The notes beneath the pieces are model-generated. The model had not been told where the DNA came from and did not search any database. It saw nothing but the letters and a program-made list of their open reading frames with translations. This document shows, one piece after another, positions 3,496-58,244 of a DNA stretch of 64,000 bases (its first letter is position 1; each line of letters begins with the position of its first letter). The stretch is from Octopus vulgaris (lineage: Eukaryota): NCBI GenBank assembly GCA_951406725.2, contig OX597822.1, forward strand, positions 73,656,001-73,720,000, written 5' to 3'. Position numbers and translations under genes: made by a program.

Positions 3496-3620
3496 TTAAC
3501 ATTCGACAGATATTTGTCCTCGTCTTGTTTGTTTTAACACAATGTTTCGGCTGATATACCCTCCAGCCTTCTTCAGGTGTCTTGGGGAAATTTCGAACCT
3601 GGGTTCTCATTCCTAATATA

Positions 3621-4743: not shown

Positions 4744-4895
4744 TCTTTGAATTATGATTAATGCGGCTCACGAGTATATCACACCAAAAGCACCGTTTCT
4801 CTTTCAATCACCGAAGGTAAGCAACGTCGAACCTATTTAGTTGGGTGACCACTTGGAGACCAAGCTCCTGTGAGCACCTCTCCCTCTCTATTATC

Positions 4896-7640: not shown

Positions 7641-8224
7641 CCAGTCAACATCTAAAATGCTCTATCCATTGTGATTAACCAGTCAATATTTATAGCTATA
7701 TGCCATCAAGTCAACAGCTATATTGTCTAAAATCTTGGGTATGACTTTAAATCGGTAGTGGGACCCTGGTTCGGAAGTTCGATGGTTTTAAGATATTTAG
7801 AACAACTCTTGGCCACTATAATTCCAGATCTACTTTGAACCGGAGTGGCAGAGCCTGTTAGGACCTCAGTTATGGCTTAATTAGCATATTAGGGATTGCC
7901 CACATATGCTTATCATGACTGGATCCGCCGTAATCTGCAGAAGAAACTTTCATTGTTTAACGGAGAGAAAAACAGTTGCAGCAACCAACGCAGAGAGCAA
8001 GAGAAGGCAAGTAATACATCTTGGTCATCCAACGAACTCGTCTCCATCCCCAGTCGTCTTGATCTGGTTTTGATACCACTAGATTAAAGGTGGTCAAGAA
8101 TGTGAGAGTGAAGTTGAAGGGTGTGTAACATTTCCACAATTTACACCAAGTCAGCGCGCAAGTCATGTGTCCTCCTTTAAGATAACTAAATGGTTCTCGT
8201 CACTCTAACGGACGGACATGATAA

Positions 8225-8537
8225 ACTCTGGCACTCTGAGAGTTCCAGTTGATTTGATGAATGGAACAGCCTGCTCGTGAAACTGACGTGCAAGTGGCTG
8301 AGCACTCCTCAGACACACGCACCCTTATCGTTGTTCTCAGGGAGATTTAGAGTAACACAGAATATGACAAGAGTGGCCCTGTCAATTACAGGTGCAACTC
8401 ATTTTCGCCAGCTGAGTGGACTGGAGCAATGTGAAATAAAGTGTCTTGCTCAAGGACACAACGTGCTGCCGGGAATCGAACTCATTACCTTACGATCTTG
8501 AACTGAATACCATAACCGCTAAGGCAAGCGCATTCAC
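8225..8537 (-). mobile_element. SINE body D + tail X
   Basis: Homologous to 42983-43305. Confidence 0.8.
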
Positions 8538-14840: not shown

Positions 14841-15290
14841 CTCATATATAACGTTTGAGTCCTTCATCGTAAGGTGTTTGCCTTCATATAGCGTATTTTA
14901 GGACAAAAGAATTTGGTGGAGCAATGCTTTCTCCAAGCTATATATGGGGCGTCTTTTACAGCTTTGTTATATACAACAGCTGTGAGCTCTTTTTAATCTT
15001 CTGGAACTGTAGTTTAAATGGAGCGCAACCTTCATCGACCCCTTCTGCTAGAAATTAATCTGCTGCGTATTTCCTCGTCCTCGATAGATAAAACAGGCAA
15101 TATAGTTGTATTTCAATAGAGGTATAGTTATTTATTTATTTATCTATCTATTTATTTAATGTACTTGCATAGCAAGTGATCTGATCTAAGATCGTGTGCT
15201 GAAACAAAAACAATTGCAGCGTGGAAGGTGCTTATAAACCATTTAAAAACACACAGAAACCGTTAGATTCACTTCAACATATAAATTTAA

Positions 15291-15341
15291 TTTGTCAAAA
15301 TATTTTCGTCGCTTTGATACCGCGACCTGTTCACTGACAAA
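15291..15341 (-). ncRNA. Minimal type I hammerhead ribozyme candidate, G3:C8 core variant
   Basis: tttgtca GTGAACA g gtcgc-ggtatcaaa-gcgac GAAAA ta TTT tgacaaa: 7-bp stem I, 5-bp stem II, palindromic stem III. Confidence 0.7.
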
Positions 15342-15361
15342 ATTCTGTGCAGCACCGAATC

Positions 15362-15410
15362 TTGTCAGTGAACAGGTCGCGGTCTCAAAGCGACGAAAAT
15401 ATTTTGACAA
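15362..15410 (+). ncRNA. Minimal type I hammerhead ribozyme candidate, G3:C8 core variant
   Basis: ttgtca GTGAACA g gtcgc-ggtctcaaa-gcgac GAAAA ta TTT tgacaa. Confidence 0.7.
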
Positions 15411-15908
15411 ATTAAATTTATATGTTGAAGTGAATCTAACGGTTTCTGTATGTTTCTTAAATGGCTTATAAACACCTTCCACTCCACAATTGCATTTATT
15501 TATTCTTTTATTCTTTAACTGGTTTCAGTCATTTGACTGCGGCCATGCTGGAGTGTTCCAATTTGCACCCTGTTTTAGTATTTCTTTTTCTCTTATGGCG
15601 GACAAAAGGCTTAACAGCATTTCGTACGTCTGTATGTTCTGAACTGAAATGCTGCCATGGTTGACTTTACCATTATCCTTTCGAGATTGATAAAATAAGT
15701 CCCAAGTGAGGGCTAGTGTCAATGTAATCGAATGGCCCACTTCACCAAACTTGCTCGCCTTGTGTCAAAATGTAAAACCTCTCTCTTTCTGTACGGAGGT
15801 AAGGAGTGTACGAAGGAAAGGAAGAAGGAATGAAGACAGGAAGTAAGTAAGATACGAAAGCAGGAAAGGAGGAAGAAAGACAGGATAATAAATGAAAGTA
15901 CAACTTAC

Positions 15909-26443: not shown

Positions 26444-26602
26444 TTAGGAATGAGAACCCAGGTTCGAAATTTCCCCAAAACACCTGATGAAGGCTGGGGG
26501 TATATCAGTCGAAACGTTGTGTTAACAACAAACAAGATGAGAACAAATATGTGTCAAATGTAAATAATGTAGAAAATTCCCCATCTTTTAAATATAGAAC
26601 TG
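26444..26602 (+). mobile_element. 5'-truncated family F tail with intact HHR core (26479-26523)
   Basis: aacac CTGATGA a ggctg-ggggtatat-cagtc GAAAC GTT gtgtt. Confidence 0.85.
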
Positions 26603-57042: not shown

Positions 57043-57904
57043 TCAGATAGAAACTATTCTCAACTCAGTCCAACTAATCACGTCTCATTCAACATGGTTG
57101 ACACTACTGACGCGTTGTGTTGCATTAGATCAGCTTCAATCTCACACGAATTATGATAAAAGCACGGCGCTTCATCCATGACCAAAATCACTCTGTTTTC
57201 TTGTATATTTCTATCTAGTAAAAATCGATTGCTTGATTCGGTTTATCAATCAACCAGTCGTGCTTGCCAAAGTCTTTTCATTGCCATTCGTGACCTTTTT
57301 GAATGACATGCCTTCGGCGACGAACGGATGTTGACAAAAACGCAGCTAATTGGTTAATTAATCGAAAAATTAACCAAAAAAATCGTTTCGTTTAATTGGT
57401 TAAATAGCTAACCAATTGACGGATAATAAAGAAGTGAAATCGAATCAGTGCGTGTGTTTATTATTAGTATAATAAACCTTCGTGAAACAACATCTCTTTC
57501 AACTCACGGCCTTACATGAAAAGTCTTGCAAACAAAATACAGAAGCAGTTTTATCAGACACATATCAGTACATAAACATACGTTCACATGTACATACACA
57601 TGTACACACACACACACGGACACGTCTACACACTTACCTAAATACTCATGTACACACATATGTACATATATGTAATACTTATATACATACATACATACAT
57701 ACATACATACATACATGCACACATATGCATAGGCACATACATGTGCACACACATTCATACATACGCACATACATACATGCATACATACAAAGATACACAT
57801 ACATACATACATACATACATACATACATACATACATACATACATACATACACACATAGATGCGTACATATATATCATGAACAATCTGTTACTTTCTCAGA
57901 TGCA

Positions 57905-58097
57905 TCACGGAATTTTGTCAGTGAACAGGTCGCGGTCTCAAAGCGACGAAAATATGTTGGCAAATTAAATTTAAATGTTGAAGTAAATCTAACGGTTTTT
58001 GTGTGTTTCTTAAATGGCTTATAAACACCTCTCACGCTGCAATTGTTTTCGTTCTAGCACACGATCTCAGATCAGGTCACTTGCTATGCAAGTACAT
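57905..58097 (+). mobile_element. Single-arm copy of the 15160 element with G3:C8 HHR motif (57914-57964, 3' side mutated)
   Basis: tttgtcagtgaacaggtcgcggtctcaaagcgacgaaaatat...cacttgctatgcaagtacat. Confidence 0.88.
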
Positions 58098-58244
58098 CTC
58101 CGTAGTTTTATCCTTTCTTTCGTAAAAACACAGACACTTTGAATGTTGTAATTATAGATAAAGTGTCTGTAAAAAAAGGGGGTGCGATGGCTAGAGCTTC
58201 CGTACCATGGAACCCAAACTACCTCTACAAAAATGCTAATAATA

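Follow-up and report, generated by a model that had tools for sequence, protein, structure and literature searches.

A putative minimal hammerhead motif with a natural G3:C8 core pair in a high-copy Penelope-like retrotransposon family of Octopus vulgaris

The tertiary pair between positions 3 and 8 of the hammerhead ribozyme core has been established by crystal structure and by engineered swaps. Natural U3:A8 hammerheads are on record (Perreault 2011, PMC3088659; Cercyon, PMC4209133), and the 56 motifs in supplementary Fig. S3 of the latter study comprise 53 with C3:G8, two with U3:A8, one with U3.G8 and none with G3:C8. Minimal type I hammerheads of metazoan Penelope-like elements (PLEs; Cervera and De la Pena 2014, PMC4209133) are located in the pLTR, have an extra nucleotide after position 9 and before 10.1, a G10.1-C11.1 pair and a short palindromic helix III, include the U3:A8 and U3.G8 variants, and occur in thousands of truncated copies, some of which are paired on opposite strands. 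They are described as weak even with a canonical core (PMC4209133). In the element PAc (Poseidon, Anolis carolinensis; PMC11167929) the hammerhead lies beside the ORF start and needs the element's protein, the tail is flanked by two internal reverse transcriptase (RT) start sites, targets are AT-rich and uncut RNA can serve as template. This hammerhead is partly rescued by engineered C3G/G8C, and insertion in vitro goes on when the hammerhead is mutated (PMC11167929). In a pairwise scan, C3G/G8C stood alone among double mutants of the CUGA region in rescuing activity (PMC9901934). Inverted copies are a described product of PLE insertion (PMC8557442; PMC11167929). Non-LTR retrozymes, which are short non-coding hammerhead repeats related to PLE pLTRs, are built as head-to-tail tandem units (PMC7229834; bioRxiv 10.64898/2026.07.22.740005). 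In the article texts searched (including PMC3884650, PMC6155905, PMC6765202, PMC7229834, PMC8495972 and bioRxiv 10.64898/2026.07.22.740005), G3:C8 was found as an engineered mutant only and not as a natural family; an earlier record elsewhere is possible.

We analysed a stretch of 64,000 nucleotides from Octopus vulgaris (contig OX597822.1, positions 73,656,001 to 73,720,000; hereafter the window), in which two pLTR copies lie head to head. The left arm (15159-15349, minus strand) is a 5'-short copy with the long 3' end, bearing a 56-nt tail of which the last 7 nt are missing, and the right arm (15348-15493, plus strand) has the short 3' end and no tail. The two arms are 91% identical across 301 aligned columns. 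An abundant unrelated repeat with at least 12 other matches in the window starts directly after the right arm (15494-15560). Each arm contains a candidate minimal type I hammerhead motif. In the right arm (15362-15410, plus strand), stem I (15362-15367 with its 3' strand at 15405-15410) is followed by the core GUGAACA (15368-15374; G3 at 15368, C8 at 15373), an extra unpaired G directly after the core (15375), a stem II of 5 bp (15376-15380/15390-15394), G12-A14 (15395-15397) and the palindromic helix III AAUAUU (15398-15403), with the predicted cut after U17 (15404). In the left arm (15291-15341, minus strand), G3 is at 15334 and C8 at 15329, and the predicted cut follows N17 at 15298. The isolated motifs each fold to stem I and stem II and leave the core open (z -2.4 and -3.3); within it, positions 3 and 8 would form a Watson-Crick tertiary pair.

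The swapped core pair that the original prediction had placed in both arms is thus confirmed at 15368 (plus) and 15334 (minus). The motif shares with the PLE minimal type I hammerheads (PMC4209133) stems I and II, the G10.1-C11.1 pair, the extra nucleotide 9.1 and the palindromic helix III, and differs from them in G3:C8 and in a longer stem I (6-8 bp here). The remaining core positions are canonical. As had been anticipated, literal searches for CUGANGA...GAAA...UH miss the motif, since its core reads GUGAACA. Rfam returned no hammerhead match for it, nor for a canonical-core minimal hammerhead at 26484, and therefore the blindness of Rfam is not due to the 3:8 swap. A relaxed hammerhead scan of the window yielded five motifs, namely the two palindrome arms and three with a canonical core. 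Two canonical-core minimal hammerhead families, one of them also head to head, are present in the window at 3579 (minus)/3860 (plus), 23770 (minus)/24196 (plus), 26481 (plus) and 43593 (plus). Elsewhere in the window, positions 4766-4876 (plus) match 5S rRNA over the Rfam gathering score (41.1 bits), perhaps as a pseudogene or a 5S-derived repeat.

A third, longer solo copy of the family, which has the long tail and, upstream, a 3' UTR rich in microsatellites, is located at 57555-58104 (plus strand). Its hammerhead motif (57913-57963, plus) retains G3 (57921) and C8 (57926), so that the swap is common to all three copies, as originally claimed. The motif itself is damaged in this copy, where helix III is impaired, with G in place of U16.1 (57956), and stem I contains an A>G change; it is likely to be dead.

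When copies were followed upstream, a GIY-YIG frame was reached some 1 kb ahead of the motif. Open frames of 1025 and 839 aa with RT motifs lie about 1 kb upstream of an identical motif, and many near-identical ORF copies, with frames of up to 1025 aa, are present in the genome. The GIY-YIG domain (PF01541) scores over the Pfam cut-off. Pfam gave no RT family match for the protein P0001; its nearest named homologues carry the label reverse transcriptase domain protein, and DKSG and YSRYVDD, which we take to be RT motifs, were located by eye in P0001 and P0002. The longer copies thus have the layout of EN+ PLEs, a single ORF (outside the window) with RT followed by a C-terminal GIY-YIG. P0001 and P0002 both have GIY-YIG and a C-x3-C-x2-C linker. 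The linker, which lies between the two domains and in P0001 reads CQSNCAVC, agrees with the Zn-finger-like C-x2-5-C-x2-C linker by which Neptune/Nematis elements are recognized (PMC8557442).

Of 32 loci found through the ORF, almost every one carries the G3:C8 motif, in most cases with no letter changed; at L106 no such motif was found within reach. The right arm in the window ends with the first codons of the RT-endonuclease ORF (MAYKHLP..., 15461-15493, plus strand), starting about 55 nt past the predicted cut, and in a tandem copy elsewhere (L131) these codons run on into the ORF, with the tail continuing into it. Repeats of the pLTR type are seen in tandem in L131, whereas L120, L096 and, among the short loci, 27 of 60 have them inverted. 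None of the copies inspected is both complete and intact, L120 being truncated at its 5' end and L131 interrupted. From these comparisons, the palindrome arms belong to the pLTR (3' end) of an autonomous RT and GIY-YIG Penelope-like element, and the family appears to have been recently mobile. The idea of a second, unrelated hammerhead family is therefore given up; the motif is homologous to those of related PLE families. Same-strand pairs of copies 3-6 kb apart (L062, L063, L094, L095) were considered as well and set aside, as no PLE ORF lies between their motifs and three of them are local duplications. At L062, two tandem intronless frames (1770-2432 and 7964-8509), which we take from a motif to resemble dCMP deaminase, are each followed by a family copy.

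The 15-mer made up of core and stem II has 6,710 exact matches in the genome (2.8 Gb) against a single one for the reversed control, and therefore the motif is not a chance occurrence. A downstream 18-mer has 6,782 matches (control, 0), and 30 of 99 arms found with it also contain the core 15-mer; as a rough estimate, the family may total about 22,000 arms. These 99 arms were sampled by position on C1, and 59 of them bear a core, with G3:C8 in 52, C3:G8 in none and a fully intact motif in 18. Among 151 arms obtained by hammerhead- or ORF-led searches, G3 is present in 142 and C8 in 143. Two other organisms have the identical core in their DNA contigs. In the copies sampled, G3:C8 is thus the fixed state of the family. 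The variant had been proposed to be natural and rare; natural it is, and fixed, but with thousands of copies it is not rare. A search for a sister that combines a canonical core with an unchanged stem II gave one match, which belongs to an old family (D, below) and is no revertant subfamily.

A related protein that carries the label Octopus vulgaris at its source matches this genome at 99-100%, in keeping with an Octopus host. Three related families were compared with the focal family (A). Family B, whose ORF is 54% identical in amino acids, has the core CUGAUGC with C3:G8 in 12 of 12 copies, C9, stem II GUCAC/GUGAC and a non-palindromic loop III. Its young pLTR-ORF-pLTR copies (L132-L137, for example G000:C17:6329500-6339000) have frames of 1311-1312 aa that are 99% alike, and it is apparently an active element with another core variant (C9). 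Family C (L176, L183-L202; 51% aa; 2,797 search candidates) has the core UUGAAAA with U3:A8 in 19 of 20 copies, stem II GUUGC/GCAAC and a stem I of 3 bp. The old family D (L138-L162), a copy of which adjoins the third focal copy in the window (57223-57655), shares its stems with the focal family and has U3.G8 in 18 of the 29 rows with letters in an alignment of 34 rows, some of which are misaligned reverse arms. Stem II of the focal family, GUCGC/GCGAC, differs from those of B and C by compensatory changes. In families A, B and C the motif sits directly before homologous ORF starts, and their ORFs together with one unnamed protein form one clade (SH-aLRT 99), with B and C as sisters, in a quick tree of 53 proteins, none of them a named PLE reference. 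An ORF was sought in family D and not found, and thus D is outside the tree. The stem covariation called for by the original prediction is therefore seen among families A, B and C, in stem II and in the 3:8 states, and the pair covaries across the four families in four states (G:C, C:G, U:A and U.G). As C3:G8 is the rule in PLEs, we infer that G3:C8 is derived. It resembles the natural U3:A8 hammerheads (PMC3088659, PMC4209133) in being a compensatory change at 3:8. However, U3:A8 can be reached by two transitions through a U.G wobble, whereas the swap to G3:C8 would take two transversions with no pairing intermediate.

Copies of the focal family terminate at two 3' points that are 56 nt apart, so that one end carries an optional tail, longer than the 30-40 bp in print for PLEs. 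Among the head-to-head pairs (27 of 60 loci), 24 of 28 combine a long with a short end. In L120, arms of 4.1 and 1.8 kb are likewise arranged head to head. Since both the pairing of ends and the layout of L120 match the described insertion structure of PLEs, the palindrome is best explained as an insertion product. The fetched loci are solo or head to head, and short same-strand repeats are rare; these dispersed pieces of an autonomous element differ in this from retrozymes. Some inverted junctions use the complementarity of stem I as microhomology (L203-L289).

The 5' ends of the 99 sampled arms are unevenly distributed. Forty-four start no more than 6 nt from the A of AGATG (57898-57904, plus strand, in the third copy), which lies 22 nt before G3 and 58 nt before the predicted cut, and three extend further upstream. 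Another 34 start between this point and the cut, one within 2 nt of the cut, seven at +6 to +9 from it at the base of stem I, possibly from RT stalling, and ten beyond. No cleavage footprint is visible at the predicted cut in these genomic ends, and the 44 starts at the AGATG point against one at the cut suggest that templates were mostly uncut. Minor 5'-end clusters at the stem I base (+6 to +9) and at the stem I 5' edge are also found among L203-L289. Among copies that start at the A of AGATG, before which the template has C or T, a non-templated G comes first in 12 of the 21 solo cases, one locus having entered twice (p 1e-4 against a background of 0.17), and in 11 of 18 junction cases. In full-length L1 insertions an extra G marks the copied cap (PMC11702581). 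By analogy, a capped transcript probably starts at the A of AGATG, and most inserts would be copies of uncut RNA that run from cap to tail, which agrees with PAc. The RNA of the element would then begin with its cap 22 nt before G3, RT would prime internally at either of the two tail sites within the first 60-220 nt and copy back to the cap to give inserts of 150 or 205 nt, and one event with both primers would yield a head-to-head pair. The focal family is thus like PAc (PMC11167929) in the hammerhead beside the ORF start, the two RT start sites that bound the tail, AT-rich targets and the use of uncut RNA, and unlike it in the C-x3-C-x2-C linker of Neptune/Nematis type, the ORF start past the cut and the 56-nt tail. 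A role of the upstream pyrimidine tract as a core-pairing switch or as template for the swap was considered and dropped, as such pairing is absent from the predicted fold.

The original prediction can be read as tying the palindrome to the ribozyme. If the palindrome were a functional unit, with two hammerheads positioned to act as a dimer, the high share of sampled arms in head-to-head pairs (56 of 99) and the palindromic helix III would find a ready explanation. However, the motifs face different strands. A transcript of the whole palindrome therefore contains one of them together with its antisense and is predicted to fold into one hairpin of -194 kcal/mol, which would sequester the motif. 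Moreover, junction points vary among copies, the same layout occurs with kilobase-long arms, the canonical-core families form head-to-head pairs too, and the arrangement is one already described for PLE insertion (PMC8557442). We regard such a unit as very improbable, and the palindromic locus itself is predicted to be inert. A second alternative concerns the dominant 5' boundary, which might be a 3' splice site, with the short copies derived from spliced RNA. CTAAC, a pyrimidine tract and YAG are present just upstream of the boundary, and the intron of the Drosophila virilis Penelope ends beside its hammerhead (PMC4209133). Yet the copies have just one extra G in common and no upstream exon, and RNA reads show neither a splice joint nor a shared loose end on a stretch that includes 29 nt of upstream sequence. 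A splice site is thus unlikely; it would bear on the boundary alone and would fit an active motif as well as an inactive one.

The remaining question is whether the motif is a catalytically dead relic, in which G3 and C8 drifted in independently while the family spread without cleavage, the fold perhaps being only structural or a protein-binding site. PLE hammerhead mutants that insert in vitro (PMC11167929) fit such a relic, as do the absence of a cleavage footprint in genomic 5' ends and RNA reads and the weakness of helix III, which consists of A-U pairs only (-0.2 kcal/mol as duplex; a one-centre dimer reaches -21.5, two monomers -25.0). RNA-seq of a related organism (two runs from a single study, of each of which about 6% was sampled, with most reads coming from scattered copies) covered the repeat on both strands and the ORF thinly, with no read-end pile-up anywhere on the stretch, and is weak evidence either way. 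Between two subfamilies, 0 of 42 constrained positions and 8 of 72 others differ (p 0.022); if loop II, on which the division into subfamilies was based, is left out, the counts are 0 of 42 and 4 of 64 (p about 0.13, by hand), so that the sign of purifying selection is weak. The spread of family B with C9 and a non-palindromic loop III hints that constraint on the motif is perhaps loose. On the other side, change within the core of some 13 positions is confined to the two that pair with each other, and is complementary, a coincidence that we would put at about 1 in 78 times 2 in 9. The core is also unchanged across subfamilies and other organisms, and related families retain the 3:8 pair in three other states. 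We consider a dead relic rather unlikely and catalytic activity of the motif in the parent element probable. U17, G3:C8 and the minimal fold should each reduce activity, and cleavage after U17 would need a dimer mediated by AAUAUU or the protein of the element, as in other PLEs. It would remove the capped leader from the mRNA or release a unit-length RNA.

Taken together, we hold with fair confidence that the window locus consists of back-to-back pLTR copies of a recently mobile PLE in which G3:C8 prevails throughout the family, with a motif that is likely to self-cleave weakly in the parent RNA and an inert palindrome. If cleavage is dispensable for short insertions, single-mutant intermediates could survive on the way to G3:C8. 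A fuller account, which we offer tentatively and with slightly less than even confidence, is that of an active natural G3:C8 hammerhead in a clade with four 3:8 pairings, in which the fitness valley was crossed by way of the uncut capped template and the short copies are cap-to-tail cDNAs resembling 'strong-stop' products. What appears to be new is the natural G3:C8 pair, which PAc has as a partly active laboratory mutant (PMC11167929), in a high-copy PLE minimal hammerhead; the palindrome itself is ordinary. Search descriptors may have to be widened, as CUGANGA misses thousands of copies in this genome. The fixed 5' end with its extra G would show, with no more than genome sequence, where transcription of a PLE probably begins, and would account for short and palindromic copies. 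A high-copy G3:C8 family beside C3:G8, U3:A8 and U3.G8 relatives would amount to an evolutionary confirmation of the 3:8 pair, and the four-state set of families may serve as a ready-made mutant series for testing selection on PLE hammerhead catalysis.
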